IMG/VR virus record: IMGVR_UViG_3300045391_003766
Coordinates: 5,395-69,394 of that record
Source: a virus
Direction: 5' to 3' (one strand)
Length of the DNA: 64,000 bases
Shown here: piece by piece, positions 2,254-63,089 of the stretch
Layout: each line of letters starts with the position of its first letter
How positions within the stretch are numbered: the first letter of the stretch is position 1
Made by a program: the position numbers and the translations under genes
The notes under the pieces: model-generated
Told to the model about the DNA's origin: nothing
What the model saw: only the letters and a program-made list of their open reading frames with translations
The model's database searches: none

Positions 2254-3384
2254 ATGAAACCAACATTGCATCTGCTCGGCATTCCGCACACACTTTCGTT
2301 TTCCGAGAGGTATTCTCACTGTGCCTTCACGACGAAGGTGAATCGATTTGTCCCGATGATGACGCGCGCCGGATACCGTGTCGTCCACTATGGGAACACG
2401 GACATCAGCACAGGGCTGCACGGCACGTCCGGGGGAACGTTCGCCAACGTCCAGATTTTCTCTTCCGAACAACTGGAAAAATATACAGGTCCGTATGATC
2501 CGGCCAGCCCGAAATTGATCGGCAGTCTTGCAGATGTCAACAGCGTTTTATACTGCGACTTCAATCGGCGGCTGGCCAAAGAACTTGACTCGAATGTGCA
2601 GCCCAATGACATCCTTTGTTTTCCGTTTGGAACTGCGCACTGGAGAGCCCTTGGAGAGAGCCGTCAGGCGGGGAAAGCTTATTGGGTAGAGACCGGCATC
2701 GGATATGAAGAAACCTTCACTTCTTTTCGGGTGTTCGAGTCGTCCGCGTGGATGCACTACCACTACGGGAAAAAGAAACAAATTTTAGACGACAACCGGG
2801 GGAGCGATTATAATTGGGTGATACCAAATTATTTCGATCTTTCCGAGTGGAAGTTGAACATCAATCCCGGTAAATACGTCCTCTATTACGGACGCATTGG
2901 CGAACACAAAGGAATGTCCATCGTCAAGGAGATTGCGCTTCGTAGGCCCGATCTGAAGTTCGTTGTGTGCGGGCAAGGAGACGCGACTCCGTTTTTAACT
3001 CCGAACATGGAAGTTCGCCCGCCCGTGCATGGCGCGGCCCGGAGCGATCTACTCGGTGACGCAATAGTGGTGCTTTGCCCCTCACGCTACGTCGAACCCT
3101 TCGGTGGCGTCGCGGTGGAGGCCATGCTGTGCGGGCGTCCAGTGCTCGCGTCCGTGTTCGGCGCGTTCGAGGAAACATTGCCCTCGGCATATTGTCGCCG
3201 GTGCCGCACGCTCAAGGACTGGTTAGACGGCCTGAGAATCTTGTCAGATCACTCACCTATTTTCTCAAAGAAAATTCGGATGCACGCGGAAAAATTTGAC
3301 ATGCATAAACTAGCGAAGAAATACGATGCCGTCTTTCAGCAGATTTCAGATTTGACACGCGGCGGCTGGTATGCGAATGTGTAG
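2254..3384 (+). CDS. Glycosyltransferase, GT-B fold, GT4-like
   Basis: YYGRIGEHKG and the EX7E signature EPFGGVAVEAMLCGRPVL. Confidence 0.9.
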   Translation: MKPTLHLLGIPHTLSFSERYSHCAFTTKVNRFVPMMTRAGYRVVHYGNTDISTGLHGTSGGTFANVQIFSSEQLEKYTGPYDPASPKLIGSLADVNSVLYCDFNRRLAKELDSNVQPNDILCFPFGTAHWRALGESRQAGKAYWVETGIGYEETFTSFRVFESSAWMHYHYGKKKQILDDNRGSDYNWVIPNYFDLSEWKLNINPGKYVLYYGRIGEHKGMSIVKEIALRRPDLKFVVCGQGDATPFLTPNMEVRPPVHGAARSDLLGDAIVVLCPSRYVEPFGGVAVEAMLCGRPVLASVFGAFEETLPSAYCRRCRTLKDWLDGLRILSDHSPIFSKKIRMHAEKFDMHKLAKKYDAVFQQISDLTRGGWYANV

Positions 3385-3386
3385 CC

Positions 3387-4106
3387 ATGAAAGTTTACGG
3401 ATACATTCGAGTCAGCGGGCGAGGTCAGACCGAAGGCGACGGCCCGGAGCGCCAAAAACAGGCGATTGAAAAATTCTGTCAAGCCCAAGGGCTCTCGATA
3501 GACGAATTTTTTTTCGAGCAGATCACCGGCACAAGCGATGCGATGGAGCGACCTAAATTCTCTGCCATGTTGGAGAGTTTTGATGCGCCAGTGCTCGATG
3601 GCCTCGGACGAGTGGATGACACCTGTCCAAAGGTTTTAGTTGTCGAACGCATGGACCGCCTCGCGCGCGACCTCATGGTTTCGGAAATGCTTTTGCGAGA
3701 GTGTCGCCAGCGCGGTATCGAAGTTTTTTCCAGCGATCAGGGCGACTGCACCAACATGGCCAGCGACGGCGGCGATCCTACGCGCGTGCTCATCCGGCAG
3801 ATCATGGGTGCGCTCGCGCAGTGGGAGAAGTCAAACCTCGTCAAGAAACTTTATGCTGCCCGCAAACGCAAGAAGGAAAAGACTGGCCGGTGCGAAGGCT
3901 ATCGTCCGCTCAACGAATGCGCAGGCGGGCAAGAAGTCATAAATCTCATTCACAATCTTTATCGTCCGGGCGAGCGCACCGCGTTACGCATCAAAGAAAT
4001 CGCGCGGCTCTTGAACGAAGACGGCTGGAAGACCCGGCGCGGCAAACAGTGGACTGAATTTTCGGTTCTCTACGTCATCAAAAATCACAAACCAACAAAC
4101 CAATGA
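3387..4106 (+). CDS. Serine recombinase (resolvase family) with short C-terminal recombinase-type DNA-binding segment
   Basis: YGYIRVS catalytic-Ser motif, VVERMDRLARD, and IARLLNEDGWKTRRGKQWT. Confidence 0.9.
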   Translation: MKVYGYIRVSGRGQTEGDGPERQKQAIEKFCQAQGLSIDEFFFEQITGTSDAMERPKFSAMLESFDAPVLDGLGRVDDTCPKVLVVERMDRLARDLMVSEMLLRECRQRGIEVFSSDQGDCTNMASDGGDPTRVLIRQIMGALAQWEKSNLVKKLYAARKRKKEKTGRCEGYRPLNECAGGQEVINLIHNLYRPGERTALRIKEIARLLNEDGWKTRRGKQWTEFSVLYVIKNHKPTNQ

Positions 4107-4285
4107 ACTTAGCCTACACCTGTTATCTCAAACAAAAAGGCACGCCGCCCACTATGAACGCCGTGGAGGACGCCTGCCGGAAACATAAAGAGGATTGTCA
4201 GCTTCGCCTCGCGCGAATCCAGAACGGCACGCACCCGGATTACCAGAACGGCCATCCCAAGGATGCAGAAAAAGGTCGAAAATAA
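4103..4285 (+). CDS. Hypothetical protein
   Basis: 60-aa ORF overlapping the recombinase stop codon. Confidence 0.5.
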   Translation: MNLAYTCYLKQKGTPPTMNAVEDACRKHKEDCQLRLARIQNGTHPDYQNGHPKDAEKGRK

Positions 4286-4496: not shown

Positions 4497-5000
4497 GTGA
4501 AAGTATTCACCTACTACGACTCGACACCGACCGCGCCCCCGAATCAGGCCGAACTGATCCGCGTTTGGGCGCATAGTTGGGAAGCGCAAGGCTGGACTCC
4601 CCGGCTTTTAACCGTCCGGCACGCAAGAGCGTCCCGTCTTGGCAGCGTATGCGCCAAGCTGTCCTGCGATTGGATTGCGGCGCTCGAATACCACGGCGGC
4701 GGGTTCTTTTGTTCGCCCAACATCATCAATTTTTCTTTTCCCGGCAAAGAGGCGTTTCTACGAGCGCCGAAGCGGGATGCTCGATTTTTCAGCGCCGGAG
4801 AATTCATCGGCCTTGCGTGGATTCCGCGTGGAGACATCGACCGGGTGGTGAATCGCGGGCCGTCGTCTGTCCAAACATGGCCCGGCATTTGCACACATCA
4901 CCGAGAGCCGGGCTGGGAGACCTCGAAGCTGGTGCATTTCGATTCGGACTTCACGTTGCAACAAATCCTCGACTGCGGGCGGCGAATTTCCTTATGCTGA
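4497..5000 (+). CDS. GT-A-like protein, paralog of 14277..14948, DxD motif absent
   Basis: VFTYY...LIRVWAHSWEAQGWTPRLL matches VYTYY...LIKVWARSWRKHGWNPVVL. GTG start at 4497 inferred from this alignment. Confidence 0.6.
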   Translation: MKVFTYYDSTPTAPPNQAELIRVWAHSWEAQGWTPRLLTVRHARASRLGSVCAKLSCDWIAALEYHGGGFFCSPNIINFSFPGKEAFLRAPKRDARFFSAGEFIGLAWIPRGDIDRVVNRGPSSVQTWPGICTHHREPGWETSKLVHFDSDFTLQQILDCGRRISLC

Positions 5001-6931
5001 CGGGCGGATACAAAGACCTCGCGATTGAGTCCTCCCGGCTGATCCATCTGGGCGACCGGGCCGGAGCCGCCGAAACAATTAACCGCTGCCTCGGCCTCGG
5101 CGTGAAGGGCGACTTTGACAGGCCCGACAAACACATGCCGGTGATCCAGACCTTCCTCCACTACATGCTTAATGAGAACGGCATGGAAGAAGCCGCCGCG
5201 ATGCTGTGGACGCCCACGCAATTTACCTCGGAGCCCCAATATACTAAAGACCTCTGGAAGCTGTTTGATGAGACCAACGCGGGGTTGATCATGGGTGCAG
5301 CATCGTGCTCGAAATCCTATGGCATCGGCGTCCGGCTGTTTCTCGAATGGATTCGCGATCCTGAATACACAACCATCAAGGTGATCGGCCCAAGTGAAGA
5401 GCATCTTGAGCAGAATTTATTTTCGCACTTGGTCAGTCTTCACAACAGCGCCACGCTCCCCATGCCCGGCGAAGTCGGAGAACTTTTCATCGGCCTCGAC
5501 CGGCGAGACATGGTGTCGTCTATCAAGGGTGTCATCATCCCCGTGGGGAAAGTCAAAAAGGCCGGACGGTTGCAGGGCGCGAAACGGAAGCCGCGCATCA
5601 AACCGCATCCGATCTTCGGCCCGCTCTCGCGCATGTTCGTGTTCATCGATGAAATTGAAAACGTGCCGGGCGGGCTATGGTCCGACATCGACAACGTGTT
5701 CTCGAACATTGGCGATGACGTTCACGGCCTAAAGATTTTCGGCGCATACAACCCCACCAACATGAGCGACGAAGTGGGCAAGCGCGCGGAGCCGCTTTTT
5801 GGTTGGGAAAACTTCGATCCCGACAAACACTTTCGATGGAAGTCGAAGCGTGGATGGGAAGTTCTCCGGCTCGACGGGGAGAAATCGGAAAACGTCGTTC
5901 AGGGTAAAGTTATATTTCCGGGATTGCAAACGCGCGCGGGCCTCGAACAGATTGCGCGCAACGCGGGCGGGAGAAACTCGCCGGGATATTTTTCGATGGG
6001 TCGCGGCGCGTATCCTCCGCAGGGCATCGAACTGACCGTCATTCCTCCGGCCATGTTCTACAAAATGCGCGGAGAGTTTATCTGGTATGAAGCGCCGCAG
6101 CCAACGTCCGGGTGCGACGTGGCGCTTGAAGGCGGAGACGCGGCCAGCTATTCGTTGGGCCGGTGTGGTTGGGCAACCGGAATGAAGCTGCCGCCGTCGA
6201 TTGATTTTCCGAATGGCCGGACGGTGATGTTCAAGTCCCCGAAGGGCCGCGTGGTGCCGCGCTGGGGCGTGCAGCTTGATCAACAATTTTCGTTGGAGAA
6301 GGGGGACACGCCTCACATGAAAAACGGTGTGCTTAATGTCACGAAGCGCGCCGGGGTGAAGCCGGAATATTTTGCAATCGACCGAACGGGCGTCGGCGCG
6401 GGTGTGGCGGATTTGATCAAGGACGAATGGTCTCGTGCGATCCACGACATTAACTATTCTCAAGCCCCAAGCACGGACAAAATAATGACCGAGGACTCCA
6501 TGACGTGCGATCAAGAGTATGATCGAATTTGCTCGGAATTGTGGTTTATGACACGCGCATATGCGGAGTTTGGCTATCTGCTCATCGCGCCATCGGTGGA
6601 CATCGCGGAGTTGTCGCAGCAGGTGACGCAGCGCCGATACCGGGCCGCAGGAAAAACGAAGAAGGTGGAAGCCAAGCGAGATTATATGTCGCGCGGTTAC
6701 AAATCACCGAATGAAGCAGATTCGCTCACGCTCATGATCTACGCGGCGCGCAAAGGCTCCGGCATCACTCCAAGTATGACGGGCGAGTCGGTGCGCGGGC
6801 CGGACAACGACGGCGGGCTCGACGATGATTGGTGGACTTCCCGGTATCCGGGCGGCGTCATCATCGATCCGACCAACCGGGCCGACGTTCTTGACGAGAG
6901 TGCCTCTGAGGATCACTTTTTATCGACATGA
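4994..6931 (+). CDS. terL: Terminase large subunit
   Basis: Divergent Walker A GAASCSKS, Walker B FVFIDEIE, and RNase H-like nuclease motifs GCDVALEGGD, FAIDRTGVG, SPNEADSL. Start placed at ATG 4994. Confidence 0.85.
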   Translation: MLTGGYKDLAIESSRLIHLGDRAGAAETINRCLGLGVKGDFDRPDKHMPVIQTFLHYMLNENGMEEAAAMLWTPTQFTSEPQYTKDLWKLFDETNAGLIMGAASCSKSYGIGVRLFLEWIRDPEYTTIKVIGPSEEHLEQNLFSHLVSLHNSATLPMPGEVGELFIGLDRRDMVSSIKGVIIPVGKVKKAGRLQGAKRKPRIKPHPIFGPLSRMFVFIDEIENVPGGLWSDIDNVFSNIGDDVHGLKIFGAYNPTNMSDEVGKRAEPLFGWENFDPDKHFRWKSKRGWEVLRLDGEKSENVVQGKVIFPGLQTRAGLEQIARNAGGRNSPGYFSMGRGAYPPQGIELTVIPPAMFYKMRGEFIWYEAPQPTSGCDVALEGGDAASYSLGRCGWATGMKLPPSIDFPNGRTVMFKSPKGRVVPRWGVQLDQQFSLEKGDTPHMKNGVLNVTKRAGVKPEYFAIDRTGVGAGVADLIKDEWSRAIHDINYSQAPSTDKIMTEDSMTCDQEYDRICSELWFMTRAYAEFGYLLIAPSVDIAELSQQVTQRRYRAAGKTKKVEAKRDYMSRGYKSPNEADSLTLMIYAARKGSGITPSMTGESVRGPDNDGGLDDDWWTSRYPGGVIIDPTNRADVLDESASEDHFLST

Positions 6932-8014: not shown

Positions 8015-8024
8015 CACTGTTTAC
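8015..8024 (+). promoter_or_regulatory. Late motif CACTGTTTAC
   Basis: Exact copy, 2 nt before the portal ATG at 8027. Confidence 0.7.
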
Positions 8025-8026
8025 CG

Positions 8027-10126
8027 ATGCCGGACATCAGCTACGCTACTACTCCCTCTTCGGTGAGCAATAAATGGAACGCCACAGGCGGTATCATTCA
8101 GTCACCGATGGTCAATGACCAAGGCACGCCGACTCAGAAATCGATCCGCGATGTCACGATGGCCCAAGAAATTGTCAAGCTGGTCGTGCAGGCAAATAAG
8201 AACCGCAACATCGTCAATGCTCGCATTCTGGCGAAGTATAATGCAGAGCGTCCCTATGACGCCGGGAAACTTGAACAAGAGGGTCTCGGCTGGCGGCAGA
8301 ATTTCACGACGAAGCCTCTTCCGTTGATGATCGAGAAAGTCGCTCCCCGATTTGTCGAAGCGGTGCAAGGTTTGAAGTATTTGACGAACGCGACGCTCTC
8401 GGACAAGTGGCAGAACGCCACCGGCAAGACCGAAAAATTTCGCAAGATAATCACCGACACGATCCGGGGCCGCAAGGGCTGGCGCACGTTGATCGAAGAC
8501 ATCGCGTTTGACAATGCGCTGTTCGGGCATACAGTCGTCGCGTGGCTCGATGAATTTACGTGGTTCCCCTCGCACTTCCAGATGGATGCAAACTTTCTGC
8601 CGGACGGAGTGAAGCAGACGGTTTCGTATTGTCAGGTCGCGGTGCTAAAAGAGATTTTTCTTCCCCACGAACTTTTCGACATGATCAAGGACCGCGAGGC
8701 GGCGAAACTGGCCGGATGGAATATCCCCGCCGTGATCGAGCAGATCAATAAGGCTTCTCCTGCGCAGCTTCGTGACCGGCTTAACGTCGGCGGCACTCTC
8801 GAAACATGGTATCAGAACGCCTATCGCGAGTTGGTCCTCGGCGTGTCCTACATGGCCGGGGCGAGCGTTATAGTGGTTTACAACCTGCTCGCGCGCGAAG
8901 TCACCGGCAAGGTCTCGCACTACCGGCTCGCGGGGACCGAGAACGCAGAAATTTTTTCAAGGGACGACCGCTTTGAAAGCATGGAGTCGTGCATGTCCTT
9001 CTTCGCCTTTCAAAAAGGAAACAGCACGATGCACGGAAGCAAGGGCGTGGGCCGCGACATCTACGAACTGGCCGGGATGCTCGACCGGACACGCAATGAA
9101 ATTGTTGACCGCTCGATTCTCTCCGGCAAAACTGTGGTGCAGGGCGACATTAAGCGGCTACACACGTTCAAGATGTCCATCATCGGCTCGACGGTGATCT
9201 TCCCGAACGGCTGGGAGATTTTGGAACAGAAGATCGATGGCAATATCGAGCCGTTCCTGAAACTGGACGCCTATTTTTCGATGCTCGTTGATCAACTTAT
9301 CGGCTCGACCTCGCCCCCGGCGCAGTTGCTCCAAGGCGAACGGAAGTCTCCGGCACTGATCGATCTTTTCGCATCTCGCGAAGAGGAAGCCCGCGATGTT
9401 CGTATCACCCGTTTTCTTGAGCAGTTCACGGACATGGCAGCGACGATGCAACGGCGGATTTGCGATCCCAATACTTCGGACGACGATGCTAAAGCGGCGC
9501 AAAAGGAATTGCTAAACTTTATGACTCGCGAGGAACTCGATGAACTGGCCAAACAACCAGTGGCGAGCACCGTTCGCGATTTGACCCCGCAACAGCGACA
9601 GTTGATTGTTTCCGTCGCTAACGAGAAGAAGGGGAACCCGCTTTACAATCAGCGCGCTCTCGAAGTCGAAGACCTTACGGCGCGCATCGGAATGGACTTT
9701 GCAAACAAAGTTTTGATTGCGGATAACGATCCGACCGAACAAGCTGAACAGCAAAGACAGCAACAGATAGAGATGGCTTTGCTCTCGCTCGGCCAGCCGG
9801 TGCCGGTTTCGCCGCGCGACAATCACGAAATTCATTTGAGTGTCGTGTTGCCCGCCGCCGAACAGATGGCGCAGCATTTGATGGACGGCAAGACGGACAC
9901 GAACGCTTTTGAGGCGATCCTCGCTCATCTAACTGAGCACTATAACCAAGCTTTACAGCACGGCGTCCCGAAGGAAAAACTCGCGGAGGTTGCACAGGTC
10001 GTCAAGAATGCAGGCCCGGCGCTCGCGAAGTTGAAGCAGCTTGATCAACAGGCGGCGGCGCTTGCGCAGCAGTCGCAGGCCCACGATGCCGAAGCCCCCG
10101 AAATGTCACAGTCACCTAATCCCTAA
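8027..10126 (+). CDS. Portal protein (putative)
   Basis: 699-aa largely helical protein with a Gln-rich tail, between terminase and scaffold. Called from gene order and size. Confidence 0.7.
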   Translation: MPDISYATTPSSVSNKWNATGGIIQSPMVNDQGTPTQKSIRDVTMAQEIVKLVVQANKNRNIVNARILAKYNAERPYDAGKLEQEGLGWRQNFTTKPLPLMIEKVAPRFVEAVQGLKYLTNATLSDKWQNATGKTEKFRKIITDTIRGRKGWRTLIEDIAFDNALFGHTVVAWLDEFTWFPSHFQMDANFLPDGVKQTVSYCQVAVLKEIFLPHELFDMIKDREAAKLAGWNIPAVIEQINKASPAQLRDRLNVGGTLETWYQNAYRELVLGVSYMAGASVIVVYNLLAREVTGKVSHYRLAGTENAEIFSRDDRFESMESCMSFFAFQKGNSTMHGSKGVGRDIYELAGMLDRTRNEIVDRSILSGKTVVQGDIKRLHTFKMSIIGSTVIFPNGWEILEQKIDGNIEPFLKLDAYFSMLVDQLIGSTSPPAQLLQGERKSPALIDLFASREEEARDVRITRFLEQFTDMAATMQRRICDPNTSDDDAKAAQKELLNFMTREELDELAKQPVASTVRDLTPQQRQLIVSVANEKKGNPLYNQRALEVEDLTARIGMDFANKVLIADNDPTEQAEQQRQQQIEMALLSLGQPVPVSPRDNHEIHLSVVLPAAEQMAQHLMDGKTDTNAFEAILAHLTEHYNQALQHGVPKEKLAEVAQVVKNAGPALAKLKQLDQQAAALAQQSQAHDAEAPEMSQSPNP

Positions 10127-10462: not shown

Positions 10463-11776
10463 ATGCCCACTCCAAATACACCTACCGACCCGGCACAGAA
10501 CAACGCGGACGTTGCGAAAAAACTGGCCGACCAAGACCAATCTCTAAAGCCGTCTCCGCCAGCGGAGTTGCAGGCTACCGACGCCGCGCTCGATGCGCTC
10601 GCGAAGGAGGCCGAAGCGAAAGCAAAGGAAGCCGCTGCCGCGCCGGAGCCGAAGGCCGATGCGCCACCTGTAACGCCTGACCCAGCCAAGCCAGACGCGC
10701 CTGTTACTCCCGTCGCCCCAGTCGAAGACCCGGCCAAGAAGCGCGCGGAGGAACTTTTCAAGGACTCGCCCAGCCTTCCGACGAATGCGAGCCCTCGGTC
10801 GTCCGAAGCGTTTTCGGCGGTCAAGATCAAAGCTGCACAAGAAGTCAGCAAGCTTGAATCCGCGCTCGCGGAGAGAGACAAAAAGCTGGCTGAAATGGAA
10901 GCCAAACTCAAAGACCCCGTTCCCCCGGAGTTGGCCAAGGAAGTCGAAGACCTCCGGCAGTTCCGCGCCCGGCTCGACGTGGAGGCCGATCCCAAGTTCA
11001 AGGAATTTGACAAGTCCATCGCGCAGACGCAGGAGTTTATTTACGACCAGCTTCGCAAGAACCCCGCGATCACCGAGGACACAATCGCCGCGATCAAGAA
11101 ATACGGCGGGCCGGAGAACGTGAACCTTGACAAAGTTTTCGAGGCCGCGAAAGACCCGGCGCTAAAGCGTATCGTCGATTCTGCGATCACGGACATCGAA
11201 AAGGCGAAGTTCAACAAGGCCGAAGCGATCAAGTCCGTCAAAGCGAACATCGATCAATACATCCAAGAGCGTCAGAAGGCCAACGAGAAATCGGCCACGA
11301 TGCACACGGAGGCTACCAAGCAGGAACTCAACAAAATCATTCCCAAACTGGAATGGCTACAGCCGAAGGCCATCGACGAGAAAGCCGACGCTGAAACTAA
11401 GAAATCGTTGGAGGCCCACAACAGTTTCGTTTCGGAAACGAACAAATCTTTGGAGTCGGCGCTTCACGACGATTCTCCTGAGATGCGCGCCATCATGCTG
11501 ACCGGCATGGCCCAGCTTCTTTATTTGCAGCGGGTCCACGAAGCGGCTCTCGCCAAGAGCGCGGCTCTCGAAAAACAGGTTGGCGAATTGACCAAACAGA
11601 TCGACGGTTACAAGAAGGCCAGCACGAGCCGTCTTCGCGAGAGCGGAGCGCCGCCTACTCCTTCGTCTGTTCCCGGAGTCAAGCCAATCGATCCGTTCAA
11701 CACGCGCGCCGTGGATGCCCTCGACCGCATTCGCGATCAGGTGGTGGAAGCGCATACTAAAGCTGCCGGTCAATGA
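10463..11776 (+). CDS. Capsid scaffolding protein (putative)
   Basis: Pro/Ala-rich N-terminus and long charged coiled coil; position after the portal. Confidence 0.6.
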   Translation: MPTPNTPTDPAQNNADVAKKLADQDQSLKPSPPAELQATDAALDALAKEAEAKAKEAAAAPEPKADAPPVTPDPAKPDAPVTPVAPVEDPAKKRAEELFKDSPSLPTNASPRSSEAFSAVKIKAAQEVSKLESALAERDKKLAEMEAKLKDPVPPELAKEVEDLRQFRARLDVEADPKFKEFDKSIAQTQEFIYDQLRKNPAITEDTIAAIKKYGGPENVNLDKVFEAAKDPALKRIVDSAITDIEKAKFNKAEAIKSVKANIDQYIQERQKANEKSATMHTEATKQELNKIIPKLEWLQPKAIDEKADAETKKSLEAHNSFVSETNKSLESALHDDSPEMRAIMLTGMAQLLYLQRVHEAALAKSAALEKQVGELTKQIDGYKKASTSRLRESGAPPTPSSVPGVKPIDPFNTRAVDALDRIRDQVVEAHTKAAGQ

Positions 11777-12654
11777 GTGATCCGCGCGCATTAGTCCCAG
11801 TCGGCGCGCCGGAGACCGTCACATTCTATGGGAAGAAGATTCTTCTTTGTCTCCCGTGGTATAAGGCGGTGACTCCTGCGACGGCGTTTTCCGTGGCTCA
11901 GTTGAAGGACCGTCGTCGAACGTCTTCAATCGTGGACTATGGTGACGCCTTCATCGCCCACGAGCGAAACAAGATGGCCGACGCTTTTCTTCGCACGGAC
12001 TGCGAATACATGCTTACCATCGACGACGATACGATTGTCCAGTTTGGCAACGCAAAATGGTTTGCCGCGAACACCGGATTCAATCTCCCGGAGCCGTTCG
12101 CCAGCATGAACACGCTCGACCGGCTGATGTCGCACAGGAAATCCTTAATCGGCGCGCTCTACTGGGGCCGCTGGAAGGGCGGCAAACCGATCTTTTGCGA
12201 GGGCATGACGAGTGACGTTTTGGCGGAGGACTTGAGAAAGACCTGCCCGCGAGACGAGATTCTCGAAACCGGATGGGTCGGGACCGGGTGCATGTTGATC
12301 CATCGGAAAGTTTTCGAGGACATCGAAGCCCGCTTTCCCAACCTCGCGCGCAAGCCCGCGCCTGAAGGTAAGTCCGGGGGAAATTGGTTTTCTTCATCTG
12401 AACACACGTTGTTGGATTCGGTGCAGCGTGTCCGGGACATGCTCGCAACCGGCCCAATGACGGGAGAAAAGTGTTTCAAAGCGTATGAGGGTTTAGAGGC
12501 CGCGCTGACGGAGGCCCGATCTATCTCCGGGCTCGGTGTCGGCGAGGACGTGATTTTTTGTCGTCGTGCGCGTCAGGCCGGGCATAAGTGCTACGTCGAT
12601 CTTGGGTGCATTGTGGGCCACATTGGACAACACTGTTATGGACTCGGAAAATAA
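11773..12654 (+). CDS. Glycosyltransferase, GT-A fold, GT2-like
   Basis: YMLTIDDD (DxD), GTGCMLIHRKVFE, GEDVIFCRRARQAG...VGH. Confidence 0.8.
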   Translation: MSDPRALVPVGAPETVTFYGKKILLCLPWYKAVTPATAFSVAQLKDRRRTSSIVDYGDAFIAHERNKMADAFLRTDCEYMLTIDDDTIVQFGNAKWFAANTGFNLPEPFASMNTLDRLMSHRKSLIGALYWGRWKGGKPIFCEGMTSDVLAEDLRKTCPRDEILETGWVGTGCMLIHRKVFEDIEARFPNLARKPAPEGKSGGNWFSSSEHTLLDSVQRVRDMLATGPMTGEKCFKAYEGLEAALTEARSISGLGVGEDVIFCRRARQAGHKCYVDLGCIVGHIGQHCYGLGK

Positions 12655-13387
12655 AATACTCATCGCGCTTCAGTTCTGGAAAGGCGATAAACTTCAGGCC
12701 ATGCGGCTTGCCGATTTTCTTGCGGACCTTGAGCCGGGCCGGAGTGAGCAGGCGGATTTTCTTTTCGTCTCCCGGTTTGATTGCCCACAGGACATCGGCA
12801 CAGTGAGTCGGGTATCCCGAAAATTTAATACATTTCACACAGTCAGTCGCAGGCGCGGCACCGGCTGGCCAGTAGGATGCAACGAACTTTGGCTCGGCAC
12901 AATGGAGTGGGCCGTCCACATGCGCGCGGCTAAGAAAATTCCACGATACAAAGCTATCTTTACTTTTGAAGCGGATGTTGTTCCTTTGGCTCGCGGATGG
13001 ATCGGACATCTTACTCATCATTGGGACTTGGAATATAAGCGCCGGAACGGCCAACTCGCTGTTATGGGCGCGTGGCTCCCGAATGGTTTCAATAACAATC
13101 CAGTGGGCCACATAAACGGAAACTGTATGTGTTCGCTTGACGACAAGATGGGGAAAGACATTTTGAAAACCGTCAACCGATGTCCGTCAGCTATCGGATG
13201 GGACTTTTTCGCCGGAGCGGAGTTTCAACGTCTTGGTTGGGCAAAAATGCCCGGACAGATGTGTGAATGGCGAACAGGAAAATACACCGTTGAAAAGTTC
13301 AACGAGTTGCTGGCCGCTAATACAATTTTGCATCACGGTTGCAAAGACAATTCCTTGCTTGATTTAAGCAGAAAGCATCTATTATGA
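12638..13387 (+). CDS. GT-A-like glycosyltransferase (putative)
   Basis: FTFEADVVPL (ExD), HINGN, and a C-terminal HHGCK. Start at ATG 12638, directly preceded by CACTGTT. Confidence 0.55.
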   Translation: MDSENKILIALQFWKGDKLQAMRLADFLADLEPGRSEQADFLFVSRFDCPQDIGTVSRVSRKFNTFHTVSRRRGTGWPVGCNELWLGTMEWAVHMRAAKKIPRYKAIFTFEADVVPLARGWIGHLTHHWDLEYKRRNGQLAVMGAWLPNGFNNNPVGHINGNCMCSLDDKMGKDILKTVNRCPSAIGWDFFAGAEFQRLGWAKMPGQMCEWRTGKYTVEKFNELLAANTILHHGCKDNSLLDLSRKHLL

Positions 13388-14280
13388 AAATTACGGTATG
13401 CGGGGCCGGGGGCTATGTGGGCCGCAGGCTTTCGGACTATCTGGAAAACAAAGGCCACGAAGTAACTCGATGGGTCCGCGAACAGGGGGACTTGATGTTG
13501 CCCGAATGCGCATCGGCGGCGTGTGAAGGTGCGGAAATGGTTTTCAATCTCGCGGCCAACGTGGGCGGGATCGGTTTTGTGTCAAAAGAGAAAGCCTCGT
13601 GTTTGCTTTCCTCGGTGATCAATTCCAACTTGCTGCAAGCTTGTGTAAAGCACAAAGTCGCTCGATATTTCTTCGCGTCGTCGTCTTGTGTGTATCCGTC
13701 CAACCTGACTGAAACGCCAGAAGAGGCCGCGTATCCCGCCGATCCTTCTACTGAGTATGGCTGGGAAAAACTTTTCAGCGAACGCTTGTGCCAAGCTTTT
13801 TCGTCGGACTACAACCTGCCAACAACTGTGGCGCGATTGCACGGAGTCTATGGGCCGGGAGACGTGAGACAACCCGGACGGGATCACGTCATTGCCGCGC
13901 TTTGTAAGAAAGTTATCAGTGCGAAGCTTTCCGGCGTCCACGAGATTTCCATCTGGGGAGACGGCGAGCAGACGCGGAGTTTTCTTTTCATCGACGATTG
14001 TGTTGAGGGCATCTGGCGGCTCGCGTCACAAGGAATTTCCGGGCCGGTCAACCTCGCGAACAGTCAACAGGTTTCGGTCAATGACCTCGTTACATTGATC
14101 GAAGAAATCTCTGGTGTGAGGCTGCAACGGTTCTATTCCACCAACGCGCCGATTGGGTGCAAGCATAAAGTCAGTTCTAATGCCCAGCTTCGTCAGCTAC
14201 TACATTGGGAACCATCGACTCTTTTGCGGGTGGGTCTTGAGGCTACATACAATGACTTTTGGGATCGGAGTTTGAAATGA
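13384..14280 (+). CDS. NAD-dependent NDP-sugar epimerase/dehydratase, GDP-mannose 3,5-epimerase-like
   Basis: GAGGYVG Rossmann motif, FNLAANVGGIGF, SSSCVYP, catalytic YxxxK (YGWEK), RLHGVYGP, WGDGEQTRSF. Confidence 0.9.
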   Translation: MKITVCGAGGYVGRRLSDYLENKGHEVTRWVREQGDLMLPECASAACEGAEMVFNLAANVGGIGFVSKEKASCLLSSVINSNLLQACVKHKVARYFFASSSCVYPSNLTETPEEAAYPADPSTEYGWEKLFSERLCQAFSSDYNLPTTVARLHGVYGPGDVRQPGRDHVIAALCKKVISAKLSGVHEISIWGDGEQTRSFLFIDDCVEGIWRLASQGISGPVNLANSQQVSVNDLVTLIEEISGVRLQRFYSTNAPIGCKHKVSSNAQLRQLLHWEPSTLLRVGLEATYNDFWDRSLK

Positions 14281-14948
14281 ATGTTTACACATATTATGAA
14301 GTCGTCCCCGGCCTTTGGTCGGAAGAATCACAACGGGCGCTAATCAAAGTTTGGGCGCGCTCGTGGAGAAAGCACGGATGGAATCCTGTTGTTCTGAACG
14401 AGAGCCACGCACGGCGTCATCCCCGGTATAAGTTTTTCAAGGAGATGTTTTGGTCGCTGCCAACAGAATATGGCCACGATTACGAAGGGTCTTGTTTCCT
14501 GCGCTGGCTGGCCGTGGAGCATGTGGGCGGCGGCATGCTGGTTGACTATGACGTTATCAACTACGGGTTCAAGCCGCGTTCTCCTTCTCGGTCTCAGATG
14601 GTTCTTTTCACAGACGGACCTCCGGTTTCAATGGGGGCTGTTCTGGGTTGCAAGCAGCACTATCTGGATATGTGCGAACTCATGGCGGCGTGGAAGCCCG
14701 ACGACCACGATATAAACCGAGGATCAAAAACGTATAATGGACACCACTGTTCAGATATGCGGTATCTTATCCGCATGTTTGATGACAAGACTCTCCCGAA
14801 GCCTGACTGGCTGGTTCAAGAACCGGGCTCAGCAACTTTTCCAAACCCCGGCTGGGATTCTTCCCCCATGACGCACTACTGTTACGCGATGCACGCGGCG
14901 GGATACTGGCCCAAGCATGAATGGATCGACCGCATTCGACCAATATGA
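14277..14948 (+). CDS. GT-A glycosyltransferase, GT32-like DxD family (putative)
   Basis: GGGMLVDYDVINY resembles the GGxYxDxD motif of GT32-type enzymes. Confidence 0.65.
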   Translation: MNVYTYYEVVPGLWSEESQRALIKVWARSWRKHGWNPVVLNESHARRHPRYKFFKEMFWSLPTEYGHDYEGSCFLRWLAVEHVGGGMLVDYDVINYGFKPRSPSRSQMVLFTDGPPVSMGAVLGCKQHYLDMCELMAAWKPDDHDINRGSKTYNGHHCSDMRYLIRMFDDKTLPKPDWLVQEPGSATFPNPGWDSSPMTHYCYAMHAAGYWPKHEWIDRIRPI

Positions 14949-15136
14949 CAACTGGCGAGATTGCAAGACCGATTCGGGAAATCTTGTGGCGGCACGCGCC
15001 GGAGTTTCTCGACGCGAAGGTTGAAATTCTGGCGACTGACATTGCTCGATACATTGAACAGCTTGTCGAAAGAAATCGCGCCAACGTGGAAAAACCTTGG
15101 AGTGACGTTGACACAGCCGATCCCGGTTTACACTGA
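14945..15136 (+). CDS. Hypothetical protein
   Basis: 63-aa ORF overlapping the upstream stop. Confidence 0.45.
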   Translation: MTTGEIARPIREILWRHAPEFLDAKVEILATDIARYIEQLVERNRANVEKPWSDVDTADPGLH

Positions 15137-15281: not shown

Positions 15282-16580
15282 ATGGCTTTTTTCTGCGATG
15301 ATCCCAGTGCAATTTCCGATATTGCATCGAAGGATACAAACCGTATCATCGGCACAATTGCGAAAGCGTTGGCCGCGAATTCGGTTTACATGAATGTCAT
15401 CGGAGGCGGGGTTTTCCCGTCCGGCGTGTCTGACACCGTTCGTTCGGTGGTCCAGATGCAAGCAGCCCCCGGCGATTCGTTCGCCATCCCCACTTTCGTA
15501 TGCGATACGGAAATCTGCGGTCAGACGGGGCATCAAGACCTTACCGACACGGTTGAATTCACGCTCCGGCTTGAGTCATTCCGTGGCCGTGGTCCGAACA
15601 TCTGCGTCAAGAAAGGTTACGCGGCGTTCAAAGGCAGCTACACGATGGCTGAGGACAGTTTGAAGAAACTCGTCACTCAATACATCAACGCTGACGTGCG
15701 CGCTCAACTCTACCTGCGCTCGGCCTCGAAGTTCACCGCGAATGCGAACTACGACTTCAACTCGTTGTTCACTGGCGGTCTCGAAACCGACCTCGGTGTG
15801 CAGTTCGCCCCGCTGTTGCCTACTGGTCCTATGACCTTCAAGGCGCTCCACTACATCGCTCGCTACCTCCGCGAAGTCCTCTTCGGCGAGTGGTATGAGA
15901 ACTCTGGCGGGATGCCTCATTTCCGCTTCATCGGTGGCTCCGATCAGATCGAATATTTTCGTTCTGAAATCGGCGTCCAGAACGTGATGGTTGCCCTTAC
16001 CACGGGCGGCTACAAACTCGGCGAGACCACGCTGACCGCGTATTCGTTCGAGCAGTCTCCGGCTTACCGGGGCATCGCGTTTGGTGTCGATCAACGCCCG
16101 CTGCGCGCTACCGGCTTCAACCCGGACGGCACGCTCGCGCTTGTCGATCCCGTTACCATCGTGAGCAATCCTGCTCGCGGCACCGCATTTGCGAAGCCGA
16201 ATCCGGCTTGGCTGAACGCCGATTATGAAGTTGGCGTGTTGATTGCTGACGGCTCGTTCGAGCGCCTCGTCCCGGAGAAATACGTGGGCGAAAGCACGTT
16301 CAAGTTTGCTCCGCAACTCCACATGGGAGAACTCGAATGGCACTACATCATGGACAATGAGTGCAATCAGTGGGGAGATTTCGGCTGGCACAAGTATCAG
16401 GTTACTCGCGCCTACCGTCCTCTGCGCCCGCAGCACATCATCCCGATCCTGTATAAGCGTTGTCAGGCCGACCTCGGCTTGGTGAACTGCGCCGACACCA
16501 GCGCCAGTAGCTATACCGGCAGCGACGCCTTCTCCACCATTGGAGTTTGCGACGACGACGAAACTCCGGTGATCCACTAA
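15282..16580 (+). CDS. Major capsid protein
   Basis: 432 aa, after scaffold and GT block. Strongly biased codon usage suggesting high expression; structured leader and downstream hairpins. Confidence 0.75.
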   Translation: MAFFCDDPSAISDIASKDTNRIIGTIAKALAANSVYMNVIGGGVFPSGVSDTVRSVVQMQAAPGDSFAIPTFVCDTEICGQTGHQDLTDTVEFTLRLESFRGRGPNICVKKGYAAFKGSYTMAEDSLKKLVTQYINADVRAQLYLRSASKFTANANYDFNSLFTGGLETDLGVQFAPLLPTGPMTFKALHYIARYLREVLFGEWYENSGGMPHFRFIGGSDQIEYFRSEIGVQNVMVALTTGGYKLGETTLTAYSFEQSPAYRGIAFGVDQRPLRATGFNPDGTLALVDPVTIVSNPARGTAFAKPNPAWLNADYEVGVLIADGSFERLVPEKYVGESTFKFAPQLHMGELEWHYIMDNECNQWGDFGWHKYQVTRAYRPLRPQHIIPILYKRCQADLGLVNCADTSASSYTGSDAFSTIGVCDDDETPVIH

Positions 16581-20963: not shown

Positions 20964-21668
20964 ATGCTAACATCCCAAATCCCAATTTTTACTGATCCCG
21001 TCGCGGGCGCGTATGTCATCAGTTCGGTAGAAGTCGAACCGGGCGTCCGGCGACTTCGCCGAGTCCCGGCTGAAAATTTAGGCGCGACCGGCCCCACGGG
21101 TCCAATCGGACCAGACGGTGCTTCCGGGCCTATAGGTTTGACCGGCGCTACTGGTCCAACCGGCCCAGCGGGCGGTCCTACGGGTCCAACCGGCCCAGCG
21201 GGCGCGACCGGACCTGCGGGTGCAACCGGGCCTTCGGGTCCAGCGGGCGCGACCGGCCCAGCCGGTGCTACAGGCCCAGCCGGTGCTACAGGCCCAGCGG
21301 GCGCGACCGGCCCTAGTTCCCCATTTATTATCGGAGTTGCCGCGAGCGACGAAACGACGGCGATCACAACCGGCACATCCAAGATTACTTTTCGCATGCC
21401 AGCGGCCATGACGGTGACGGCGGTTAGAGCAAGTTTAAACGTCGCATCTTCTTCAGGTCTAGTCACGATTGACATCAACGAAGGCGGCGTCTCGATACTC
21501 AGCACCAAACTCACCATCGACGCGAACGAATTGACTTCCACAACGGCGGCGACACCCCCGGTGATTTCGGACTCGGCCCTCGCGGACGATGCAGAAATTA
21601 CTATTGACATCGACGGCGCAGGAACGGGAGCTAAAGGTCTTAAAATTTGGCTTATCGGCTCTTACTAA
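20964..21668 (+). CDS. Collagen-like fibre protein
   Basis: About 27 G-X-Y triplets with one interruption. N-terminal [13 protein letters not shown] is shared with 432..860; beta-rich C-terminal domain. Confidence 0.85.
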
Positions 21669-41699: not shown

Positions 41700-42401
41700 T
41701 TAACTATTAAATAGTCTCCCATTTTTCATCAACGCGCAACGCACCTTTTTGAGCGCGCGGACATGGGTGAATTGAATAGCGCTGCGCGATACGCCCAGCA
41801 TCTTGCCGATTTTGCTGAAGTCGAATCCGCCGCGATAGAAAAGGTCGAGGACCATTTTTTCCTGATCGCTAAGTTCGCGGTCAATCACGTCCTTCACCAT
41901 TGCCCAACGTTCGCGCAGATCGATGGCATCGAATTCTGGTTCAACCGCAAACGTGCCAGCGCAAACGTCGTTAAAACAATCCTCTAAACGAATAGGCGAC
42001 GCCAACACCGAGTCGCCTAAAAATTCTCCGACTTCTCCAATTTCACGACTGGATTGCATAGAAACTGTAACTCCATTTTTTACCGTGTCTCTTGCCCGCC
42101 ATGCGCGAGAAATCTCGCCCCGAATGTAGGGCTTGGCGTAACCCATGAATCGCGACTTGGCGAACCGATGGTTGCGCTCCGGCTTGTAGTTATTCGCCGC
42201 GTGGCGCACCGCAGAGTAAGCGAGACTGAAAAGTTCGTCGTCCGGCAGGAGGCTCCGGCTGACTCCCTTCGCGTAATAAAACGCATCGCGCATCGTATGC
42301 AGGACCAGCTTCTCGCGGCCTTTTTCGGTGCGGGCGCAAGCAATTTCTTGGGCTATGGTGAGCTTCGCTTCCGGGAGCGACGATAGTAGGGTTGGATTCA
42401 T
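41700..42401 (-). CDS. Phage RNA polymerase sigma factor (sigma70 regions 2 and 4)
   Basis: Region 2-like ELFSLAYSAVRHAANNYKPE...FMGYAKPYIRGEI and region 4 LSDQEKMVLDLFY...FSKIGKMLGVSRSAI. Confidence 0.85.
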   Translation of the reverse strand: MNPTLLSSLPEAKLTIAQEIACARTEKGREKLVLHTMRDAFYYAKGVSRSLLPDDELFSLAYSAVRHAANNYKPERNHRFAKSRFMGYAKPYIRGEISRAWRARDTVKNGVTVSMQSSREIGEVGEFLGDSVLASPIRLEDCFNDVCAGTFAVEPEFDAIDLRERWAMVKDVIDRELSDQEKMVLDLFYRGGFDFSKIGKMLGVSRSAIQFTHVRALKKVRCALMKNGRLFNS

Positions 42402-42402
42402 G

Positions 42403-62597: not shown

Positions 62598-63089
62598 TTA
62601 CTCGTCGAACAATTCGTCCGGCTCTGTGAGCACCACGCATTCGCCACTCAGCGCCAGCGGGATCAGCCATTTGAGATTTGGCAACACATCCCCGTTCGCG
62701 TTGCCAAGCACGCCTTGCGCGTCAAACAATGAAACCAGTTCATCCGTTGCACTGTGTATGGATGAAACGTTTCGCCATTCCGTCATTGCGCGGAAAAAGA
62801 ACACGCGCACGCCGTTCTGAAAAGTGTAGGTCGCGAAATGCCCCCATGATCGTTGGGTATCATCGCCGGTCTCTTCCTTCCATTCGCGGTGCATCGCCAT
62901 AAGAGGCGATTCGCCCGGCTCAATCTTACCGCCGATGCCATTGAGTTTGCCTCGCTGCCACGCGGGTTTTACTTTGAGGATAAGGTAAACGCCGGGCCGT
63001 TGCCAGAGGGCCAGCCGATCCGTGACGAAAAGAAATCCGCACACATAATCGGCGGGCGTTTGTGATTGTTGATCAGACGTTGATGCCAT
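62598..63089 (-). CDS. NUDIX hydrolase
   Basis: Nudix box GGKIEPGESPLMAMHREWKEETG. Confidence 0.9.
   Translation of the reverse strand: MASTSDQQSQTPADYVCGFLFVTDRLALWQRPGVYLILKVKPAWQRGKLNGIGGKIEPGESPLMAMHREWKEETGDDTQRSWGHFATYTFQNGVRVFFFRAMTEWRNVSSIHSATDELVSLFDAQGVLGNANGDVLPNLKWLIPLALSGECVVLTEPDELFDE

Follow-up and report, generated by a model that had tools for sequence, protein, structure and literature searches.

Predicted glycosyltransferases between the scaffold-like and capsid-like genes of an uncultured soil phage and their possible role in virion glycosylation

The complete 73-kb genome of an uncultured tailed soil phage carries a cassette of four plus-strand genes that fills positions 11773-14948 of the window, by which we mean the whole 64,000-nucleotide stretch analysed. 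A glycan-building role for this cassette is supported by its content: two core glycosyltransferases of predicted GT-A fold (GTa and GTb), a third transferase candidate for which the evidence is weaker (GTc) and, between them, a GDP-mannose-type epimerase (SDR). We regard it as somewhat probable that the system glycosylates the virion, with the tail of the capsid-like protein as lead acceptor. A first-pass annotation of this DNA had proposed such a virion glycan; what it observed is, as a whole, partly confirmed, and its interpretation is partly supported.

Gene order and expression signals

The genes that concern us, all on the plus strand, are the following:

2254..3384, +, GT4-family (GT-B) glycosyltransferase, accessory gene (predicted; Pfam and PHROG)
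4497..5000, +, GTd, 167 aa, paralogue of the N-terminal half of GTc
10463..11776, +, scaffold-like gene, 437 aa, Ala/Glu/Lys-rich
11773..12654, +, GTa, 293 aa, core GT-A glycosyltransferase (predicted)
12638..13387, +, GTb, 249 aa, ATG start, core GT-A glycosyltransferase (predicted)
13384..14280, +, SDR, 298 aa, NAD-dependent, GDP-mannose 3,5-epimerase-like
14277..14948, +, GTc, 223 aa, accessory GT32-like candidate glycosyltransferase
14945..15136, +, small ORF, 63 aa
15108..15136, +, promoter-like TTGACA-N17-CACTGA, 146 nt 5' of the capsid-like gene
15282..16580, +, capsid-like protein gene, 432 aa

The stop of the scaffold-like gene overlaps the start of GTa in an ATGA (11773-11776), and the same arrangement joins GTb to SDR (13384-13387) and SDR to GTc (14277-14280), for which an ATG at 14277 is a better fit than a TTG at 14259; GTa and GTb overlap by 17 nt (12638-12654). 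These ORF junctions bear out the earlier description of four genes with overlapping stop and start codons between the scaffold-like and capsid-like genes, and the cassette genes are translationally coupled. The small ORF, itself ATGA-coupled to the GTc stop, had no tblastn match in relatives and is unique to this genome. As to the flanks, named "scaffold" and "MCP" in the first pass, their positions hold but their identities are putative: Pfam, PHROG and PDB sequence searches lent no support to "scaffold" or "MCP", nor to "portal" or "terminase", names that derive from the order, size, composition and motifs of the genes.

Inside the coupled run from the scaffold-like gene to GTc there is no terminator or promoter signal above chance, and from the sequence we read the cassette enzymes as part of the late portal-scaffold unit. 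The CACTGTT that abuts the ATG at 12638, previously taken as a sign of co-regulation with late genes, is indeed present, but the argument from it fails: 43 of 44 distinct relatives lack it before GTb, neither the T(A/T)C extension nor the -35-like element of the intergenic copies accompanies it, and it is probably a chance occurrence. The TTGACA-N17-CACTGA pattern, which would act as a promoter, recurs 146-177 nt 5' of the capsid-like gene in relatives: 5 of the 52 distinct ones have it, where the background rate is 0.003 per search window.

Predicted activities of the cassette enzymes

The AlphaFold2 model of GTa (pLDDT 87.8) matched many GT-A enzymes of the PDB in Foldseek with probability 1.0 (E 7e-7 to 1e-4), among them the GT domain of LH3, COLGALT1, STIV A197, Mnn9, mimivirus R699, GlfT2 and ppGalNAc-Ts, and in BFVD it matched phage GT-A proteins (E 4.5e-15). 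The motifs D84-D85-D86, E258-D259 and H283 are invariant or nearly so in 29 sequences, D84 and D86 being invariant and D85 nearly so. By its model, GTa is thus a GT-A fold glycosyltransferase. No Pfam family matched it at E <= 0.01, PF00535 (the CAZy GT2 model) included, and PF00535 or Anp1 occurs in only a minority of its Atlas neighbours, so that the earlier name "GT2-like" stands as a fold neighbourhood only and fails as a sequence family.

GTb, modelled with a pLDDT of 95.6, likewise matched many GT-A enzymes with probability 1.0 and TM up to 0.63, including glycogenin, CHSY3, B3GNT2, B3GalT5 and PBCV-1 A64R (E 1e-8 to 1e-6). D17, D113, H158-N160 and H233 are invariant; D113 occupies the ExD position, the E of which varies. 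GTb, too, is a GT-A fold glycosyltransferase on the strength of its model, in agreement with its initial description as an ExD GT-A-like protein. It belongs to a large family without a Pfam model: its profile matches 1194 clusters at 50% identity, some of them fusions with GT2 or with a perhaps GH130-like domain at the C-terminus.

The structural basis for GTc comes from the ESM Atlas, whose features and own model place it close to the Gly_transf_sug, Gb3_synth, Caps_synth, NleB and TcdA clusters (TM 0.60-0.64, the range also obtained to PF04488 clusters). D90-Y91-D92 is invariant in 30 homologues. Pfam, PDB profile searches and hhalign returned nothing for GTc, and PF04488 (GT32) matched neither it nor 29 homologues; the "GT32-like" assignment thus survives through the Atlas and finds no backing in the other three. 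GTc therefore appears GT-A-like on weaker evidence than GTa and GTb, and few relatives carry it.

Two further GT-like genes had been pointed out. The one at 2254 matched PF00534 (49 bits against a cut-off of 26.4), PF13692 and PHROG 3408, glycosyltransferase (2.9e-44), and is by these matches a GT4/GT-B enzyme. It adjoins a small serine recombinase gene (3387-4106). GTd, at 4497, shares 32% identity with GTc (BLASTP, E 1e-12) and has S-P-N aligned to the D-Y-D of GTc; with the DxD lost, it does not hold up as a working glycosyltransferase.

The SDR matches the Pfam Epimerase family (1.2e-43), and its best PDB matches, over the full length, are the GDP-mannose 3,5-epimerases (GME, EC 5.1.3.18) 8sg0 and 2c59 (E 6e-52, 180 bits), compared with E 4e-26 and 95 bits for GDP-fucose synthase (Fcl); NCBIfam gave a sub-threshold Fcl match only. 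The earlier call of a GDP-mannose 3,5-epimerase-like enzyme is in line with this closeness to GME. The equivalents of AtGME C145, Y174 and K178 are kept, whereas K217, the second acid/base residue, is replaced by His and the chain falls some 80 residues short of plant GME in length. The His at this position presumably recalls the Cys/His pair of GDP-fucose synthase. We consider the SDR probably a candidate donor enzyme for GDP-L-galactose or GDP-L-gulose, as judged from its sequence. At the SDR place, relatives encode Gmd (above the equivalog cut-off) and Fcl (near the cut-off), the enzymes for GDP-L-fucose, and therefore synthesis of an own donor sugar, as claimed initially, holds for the phage family; for the present phage it is a prediction from the GME-like SDR.

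Conservation in relatives and the capsid-like tail

Whether relatives keep glycosyltransferases beside the scaffold-like and capsid-like genes had been suggested as a check, and they do: GTa and GTb lie between the two in 70 of 72 related loci, spanning capsid identities of 37-92%. The scaffold-like gene is kept 5' of GTa at 25-57% identity. Divergence of GTa follows that of portal and capsid (Spearman 0.53-0.57), and GTa therefore behaves as a core head-module gene and not as a moron. The genes 3' of GTb vary among relatives, yet they are always sugar-related, comprising Gmd, Fcl, GME-like enzymes, further GT-like genes, a pyruvyl transferase, an FkbM methyltransferase and Stealth/DUF6492-like genes. 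The minimal cassettes (L028 and L056 among them) consist of GTa and GTb only, without a sugar-nucleotide enzyme.

The capsid-like protein is the most conserved protein of the phage family (84-92% identity in most relatives) and ends, at residues ~401-432, in a hypervariable Ser/Thr-rich tail, which is indeed the stretch quoted in the first pass. Entropy is 1.6-2.0 bits in the tail and 0.36-1.2 elsewhere in the protein, the S+T fraction is 0.32 compared with 0.12 in the body, and tail length ranges from 23 to 67 aa among relatives. The protein also carries the motif C..DLGL..C...SS[FY][ST]G. In the one GT-less relative (n=1; L073, 58% identity) the Cys pair and SS[FY][ST]G are missing, and the GT-bearing L163 (61% identity) retains C..DLGL..C and Y-T-G. 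Since the GT-less protein still has a short tail with Thr and Ser-Ser, and tails are short and free of SS[FY][ST]G throughout the GT-bearing L079 clade, the presence of the tail tracks that of the transferases uncleanly, with a single GT-less lineage for comparison. Covariation of tail and cassette is weak (partial r 0.08-0.19, with portal, scaffold and g10139 controlled), and the tail covaries equally well with the adjacent scaffold gene.

Virion glycosylation, known systems and other explanations

Freeman et al. (2023, Cell Host Microbe 31:1216) reportedly described virion glycosylation in mycobacteriophages. Capsid and tail-tube subunits of Che8, Corndog, Myrna and other mycobacteriophages are glycosylated by transferases that the phages themselves encode, joined in cluster O by an O-methyltransferase, and a glycan shield of the particle is proposed (PMC11600133, PMC11256854, PMC12582341). 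The present, putative system resembles it in its several phage transferases, in the tailoring enzymes of relatives and in the mycobacteriophage-type Ser/Thr-rich C-terminal extension of the capsid-like protein, a putative capsid. It differs in that its transferases have no sequence homology to the proven mycobacteriophage enzymes: a tblastn search of 50,697 GenBank phages gave no match for GTa, GTb or the capsid-like protein, and the likeness to Ardmore gp87 (cluster F1) in BFVD (E 2e-4, TM 0.39) is generic to GT-A. The F1 transferase genes lie near the right genome end (PMC11256854), whereas here they occupy the scaffold-like/capsid-like interval and are core to the family, which adds GDP-sugar biosynthesis genes. 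PBCV-1 encodes GMD, GMER and cytoplasmic GT-A enzymes for the glycan of its capsid protein Vp54 (PMC4691112); its A64R is among the structural matches of GTb, and its GMD and GMER make GDP-L-fucose, as the Gmd and Fcl in the relatives' cassettes would. However, it is a giant virus of eukaryotes whose atypical glycans are N-linked and whose genes are scattered around its genome (PMC4691112), in contrast to the compact operon of a 73-kb tailed phage in which a GME-like enzyme takes the place of Gmd and Fcl.

We propose that the cassette would act in the cytoplasm as a soluble system for glycan assembly, produced along with the head proteins. GTa and GTb are the vertically inherited core transferases of the family, and the swappable module behind them would supply GDP-mannose-derived L-sugars, here probably GDP-L-galactose or GDP-L-gulose from the GME-like epimerase and in relatives GDP-L-fucose from Gmd and Fcl. 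The module would also add transferases, GTc in this phage and in relatives the c2 family along with pyruvyl- and methyltransferases. The product would be a short O-glycan, differing between lineages, on a protein of the virion surface, with the exposed tail of the capsid-like protein as lead acceptor and G-X-T collagen fibres as second. What the analysis shows is how GTa and GTb fold in their models, which catalytic motifs they keep, the synteny, and, by sequence, which donor pathways are encoded; we infer the virion protein as acceptor, the sequence in which the transferases act and whether the glycan serves to shield or to adhere.

Bacillus BclA-type collagen repeats offer an O-glycosylation comparison for the second acceptor. 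On that account the glycans would sit on Thr of G-X-T collagen-like or other fibre proteins 3' of the capsid-like gene, which we find rather unlikely. The four collagen tracts of the genome carry Thr at position Y of 71-100% of their triplets, LH3 and COLGALT1, both collagen glycosyltransferases, are among the nearest solved folds of GTa, and the GT-less L073 has a Thr-poor collagen of the G-X-Q/E type; yet the collagen of the GT-bearing L045 is also low in Thr (0.12-0.13), several GT-bearing loci have no collagen tract within 8-10 kb, the likeness to LH3 and COLGALT1 is generic GT-A (TM ~0.43), and the transferase genes adjoin the capsid-like gene outside the fibre block. A little less improbable, though still unlikely, is that the enzymes modify lipid-linked LPS, EPS or capsule precursors of the host late in infection, blocking superinfection, preventing re-adsorption of progeny to debris or easing release. 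The variable module does resemble bacterial O-antigen/EPS clusters in its modular, swappable transferases, GDP-sugar enzymes (Gmd and Fcl among them), pyruvyl- and methyltransferases and high diversity between lineages, and a distant GTc homologue lies in a cellular polysaccharide gene cluster with Wzy_C and MBOAT, so that GTc-type enzymes can act on lipid-linked glycans. Against it, the cassette has no Wzx, Wzy or Wzz, no flippase, polymerase or initiating polyprenyl-phosphate transferase, and no membrane protein, none of its enzymes containing a membrane segment; it is embedded in the head operon and coupled to scaffold translation, and its head-module position has been kept by vertical inheritance over a deep phylogenetic range, unlike lysogenic-conversion morons.

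Two explanations dispense with a glycosylated surface altogether. Draining or redirecting the host GDP-mannose pool, or glycosylating a metabolite with no virion product, would agree with the predicted use of GDP-mannose-derived substrates by all donor enzymes of the family; we find it very improbable, because a drain would not require a set of two to five transferases whose catalytic motifs are conserved, and the minimal cassettes have no sugar-nucleotide enzyme. We know of no GDP-sugar pathway in DNA glycosylation, and that the transferases act on modified bases of the phage DNA during or before packaging strikes us as the least credible account. Phage glycosyltransferases on 5hmC or 5-hydroxycytosine do exist (10.1101/2023.12.21.572611; PMC13326640) and packaging genes lie near the cassette, but the complete genome has no TS-like hydroxymethylase (PF00303), C5-methyltransferase (PF00145) or Tet/JBP (PF12851), the last a weak point as its control was matched nowhere either, and Pfam scans of the replication module likewise found no such genes.

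More tentatively, and as a possibility that we think doubtful at present, capsid glycosylation may be core to head assembly in this large, wholly uncultured soil phage family, the family-specific GTa and GTb priming the tail glycan, and the swappable O-antigen-like module of GDP-L-fucose or GDP-L-galactose synthesis, extra transferases and pyruvylation or methylation would give each lineage its own "capsid serotype". On this reading GTb would represent a new GT-A family of protein-modifying enzymes, counting some 1200 clusters at 50% identity, and the SDR would be, to our knowledge, the first viral GDP-mannose 3,5-epimerase.

Organization and conservation of the cassette

The head operon of this phage family contains a real, well-conserved glycan-assembly cassette, which in this genome comprises four sugar-enzyme genes, GTa, GTb, SDR and GTc. 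The source record is a complete IMG/VR virus of 72,895 bp with terminal repeats (70 bp, determined by script), of which bases 5395-69394 form the window. Late genes occupy the + strand and the replication module the - strand, the latter encoding a family-A DNA polymerase, a helicase, a PD-(D/E)XK nuclease, an RNA ligase and a sigma-70-like factor. The cassette and its flanking genes are arranged as follows (window coordinates):

10463-11776, +, scaffold-like gene (437 aa, Ala/Glu/Lys-rich)
11773-12654, +, GTa, predicted GT-A glycosyltransferase
12638-13387, +, GTb, predicted GT-A glycosyltransferase
13384-14280, +, SDR, short-chain enzyme nearest to GDP-mannose 3,5-epimerases
14277-14948, +, GTc, D-Y-D motif, GT32/NleB/TcdA-like by ESM Atlas only
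14945-15136, +, small ORF (63 aa), coupled by overlap like the cassette genes
15282-16580, +, capsid-like gene (432 aa)

All cassette junctions overlap (in order ATGA, 17 nt, ATGA and ATGA), in agreement with the first-pass annotation, which had described four sugar-handling genes with overlapping stop and start codons at this location. The labels scaffold, MCP, portal and terminase found no support in Pfam, PHROGs or PDB; they are based on gene order, size and conservation, and for the terminase also on visual inspection, which showed Walker-like and nuclease-like motifs. Portal and capsid profiles gave no match against PDB and PHROGs, and the presumed portal (8027-10126), capsid (15282-16580) and large terminase (5000-6931) were matchless in Pfam, PHROGs and PDB sequences even as family profiles. 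The structural protein families of this phage family are undescribed.

Soil phages of 70-75 kb that share the capsid-like protein form a large family, with 682 homologues at E <= 0.001 in a protein search, each representing one 90%-identity cluster. GenBank phages gave no match when the region, GTa, GTb and the capsid-like protein served as blastn and tblastn queries. The family is abundant in soil metagenomes and has no cultured member; near-identical sequence was confined to soil metagenome DNA runs in a sequencing-run search that also covered RNA evidence, and two MAG contigs that carry relatives bear discordant host labels (Peribacteraceae and Rhodoferax). Whether relatives keep transferases next to scaffold and MCP, a question raised at first pass, could be answered in the affirmative: of the 72 loci that span portal to capsid, 70 have GTa and GTb at this place, flanked by the scaffold-like and the capsid-like gene. 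Among them are a clade at only 37-40% capsid identity and L163, a relative at 61% identity with a fused GTb. The exception is a GT-less contig (L073/L152, 58% identity), whose capsid type proved a singleton when IMG/VR was searched for more GT-less relatives. GTa identity correlates with that of portal and capsid (Spearman 0.53-0.57), which indicates vertical descent. GTa and GTb belong to the fixed core of the head module and are not accessory genes.

Transferases and sugar donors

Sequence searches of Pfam, PHROGs and PDB gave almost nothing for the three proteins GTa, GTb and GTc, with no matches in Pfam or PDB. We therefore relied on alignments of 28-29 homologues from related loci and on models of GTa and GTb, the two conserved proteins. 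The GTa model (pLDDT 87.8) matched GT-A enzymes at probability 1.0, among them the LH3 GT domain, COLGALT1, STIV A197, Mnn9, mimivirus R699, GlfT2 and polypeptide GalNAc-transferases, as well as uncultured-phage GT-A proteins in BFVD (E 4.5e-15); D84, D86, E258-D259 and H283 are invariant and D85 nearly so. The GTb model (pLDDT 95.6) matched glycogenin, chondroitin synthase, B3GNT2, B3GalT5 and PBCV-1 A64R, and its invariant columns include D17, D113, H158, N160 and H233. Model and structure search thus point to a GT-A fold for both proteins, initially called GT2-like (GTa) and ExD GT-A-like (GTb). The GTb family has no Pfam model, and its profile retrieved 1194 clusters at 50% identity. In L163 (7001-8776) GTb is fused to a C-terminal domain, maybe GH130-like, within the same head-module architecture, and in L164 (125-3115) a GTb-like domain lies within a 996-aa protein that also carries a GT2 domain.

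The GT32-like assignment of GTc is tentative: D-Y-D is invariant and ESM Atlas suggests a GT32/NleB/TcdA-like protein, but the GTc profile retrieved nothing from PDB or Pfam, and hhalign detected no relation to GTa or GTb. The two further GT-like genes lie between the fibre block and the terminase-like gene. Gene 2254 was identified as a GT4 enzyme. Gene 4497 is a truncated GTc paralogue which lacks DxD and is probably inactive. Gene 4497 (4497-5000) overlaps, in another frame, a long TTG-started ORF of the terminase-like gene (4577-6931), whose true start is probably near 5000. The 2254-4285 stretch holds, besides the GT4 gene, a 239-aa serine recombinase of the resolvase/invertase type and a 60-aa ORF; an inverted-repeat scan near the fibre genes yielded two weak pairs only (482-500/1108-1126 and 2394-2414/3139-3159).

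GDP-mannose 3,5-epimerases (GME) were the best matches of SDR (E 6e-52, compared with 4e-26 for GDP-fucose synthase, Fcl). SDR is thus a candidate GME-like enzyme; the equivalents of AtGME C145, Y174 and K178 are retained, and K217 is replaced by His. Among relatives, the stretch 3' of GTb varies from 0 to ~4 kb and may encode Gmd together with Fcl (Gmd scoring 436-524 bits on TIGR01472, whose cut-off is 415), only Fcl, a GME-like enzyme alone or a GME-like enzyme with Gmd. Donor enzymes across the family all start from GDP-mannose. L-fucose is 6-deoxy-L-galactose; the GME-like enzyme of this genome and the Gmd and Fcl of relatives would thus yield sugars that share one configuration. GDP-mannose is a substrate of some NUDIX hydrolases, and a link of the NUDIX hydrolase in the early region (62598-63089, -) to this sugar-nucleotide theme is therefore conceivable.

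The same variable stretch also holds a polysaccharide pyruvyl transferase, homing endonucleases and a 250-aa family with GTb-like motifs (c2), a possible GT whose YAGD, DADS and HSxK motifs align with GTb, at only 6.7% probability in hhalign; in the distant clade it carries an FkbM methyltransferase and DUF6492/Stealth-like proteins. Homing endonucleases inside the cassettes of several relatives (L047:9324-9806, L023:5538-6146; Endonuclease VII type; GIY-YIG with NUMOD3) may drive module exchange.

Inferred transcription units

Scans detected no promoter or terminator signal above chance inside the cassette block. A promoter-like TTGACA-N17-CACTGA lies at 15108-15136, 146 nt before the capsid-like ATG, and 5 of 52 distinct relatives have this pattern 146-177 nt upstream; the capsid-like gene hence appears to form a unit of its own, preceded by a long leader. 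We infer that the cassette is transcribed as part of the portal-scaffold unit and that the capsid-like gene has its own start. Late co-regulation of GTb through the CACTGTT before its ATG (12638), as first proposed, was rejected: the motif occurs in one of 44 distinct upstream sequences, that of the window genome, and this copy lacks the features of the intergenic copies. Elsewhere, CACTGTTTAC/TTC stands 5-11 nt before late-gene start codons at 8015, 19697, 22351, 27803 and 31651 (+), with a TTGxCx-like hexamer 17 nt upstream; its 14 copies exceed the 5.4 expected. It resembles a -10 element from which leaders would be very short, and the phage sigma-like factor (41700-42461, Sigma70_r4) may recognise it.

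Candidate acceptors and possible role of the glycan

The capsid-like protein is extremely conserved save for its last ~30 residues, where entropy reaches 1.6-2.0 bits against 0.36-1.2 elsewhere. This tail varies between 23 and 67 aa and is rich in Ser and Thr (0.32, compared with 0.12 in the body); most family members show C..DLGL..C, then an S/T-rich stretch, then SS[FY][ST]G[AS]D, a motif found at no other place in the proteome. GT-less L073 has neither the Cys pair nor the tail motif, whereas GT-bearing L163, of similar divergence, keeps C..DLGL..C and Y-T-G, a comparison limited to the one GT-less lineage. Counting against the tail as acceptor, tails in the GT-bearing 37-40% clade are short and lack the motif. 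At residues ~394-423, the Ser/Thr-rich segment is flanked by three cysteines (C..DLGL..C and GVC) that GT-bearing relatives keep, the first two being absent from L073; a disulfide or metal-locked loop may be what these cysteines form. Tail and cassette covaried in a partial Mantel test controlling only for the capsid body (r 0.24, p 0.0005), but with portal, scaffold and g10139 also controlled the signal was weak and threshold-dependent, and the scaffold gene did equally well, so we discounted it. Complex prediction with GTa, GTb and the capsid tail (residues 385-432) returned no answer (score 0.00) and is evidence neither way.

The second candidate acceptors are the collagen fibres:

genome 4324-6254 (window up to 860) and window 20964-21668, G-X-T collagen tracts

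In four collagen tracts, 71-100% of triplets have Thr as their Y residue, and in two further tracts 45-47%. The G-X-T collagen of this genome is unusually pure and abundant, but Thr-rich collagen does not follow GT presence cleanly across relatives, and we consider fibres quite unlikely acceptors. Remodelling of the host envelope would fit the O-antigen-like content of the cassette and the context of a 33%-identical GTc homologue, whose neighbours in a cellular polysaccharide cluster include GT2s, FkbM methyltransferases, Wzy_C and MBOAT; we judge it unlikely, given a head-module position that is fixed and vertically inherited and a cassette with no membrane component (GTa, GTb, SDR, GTc and genes 2254 and 4497 all lack membrane segments). 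DNA glycosylation, whose known precursor enzymes were not found in searches of the complete genome, is extremely improbable, and other readings are very improbable. We lean towards virion glycosylation, with the capsid tail as the likeliest, putative acceptor; of the original proposal, the glycan cassette conserved in the head operon speaks for it, and the acceptor stands as a candidate.

Virion glycosylation by phage-encoded enzymes has, to our knowledge, been shown experimentally for a few actinobacteriophages only; among eukaryotic viruses, it occurs in chloroviruses and mimiviruses. If virion-directed, the cassette would be a new variant of the kind of glycosylation found in mycobacteriophages and chloroviruses. 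What sets this soil-abundant, uncultured family apart is that its transferases form a fixed, core part of the head module, and the cassette genes are small, soluble and amenable to testing. Were the glycan attached to the capsid, glycosylation of particles would be both old and common among tailed phages. Virions would then have a natural means of switching glycan 'serotype', and a defined peptide acceptor would be at hand for two GT-A families that are uncharacterised. Such families would be of use in glyco-engineering and would help to explain persistence, adhesion and recognition of phages in soil.
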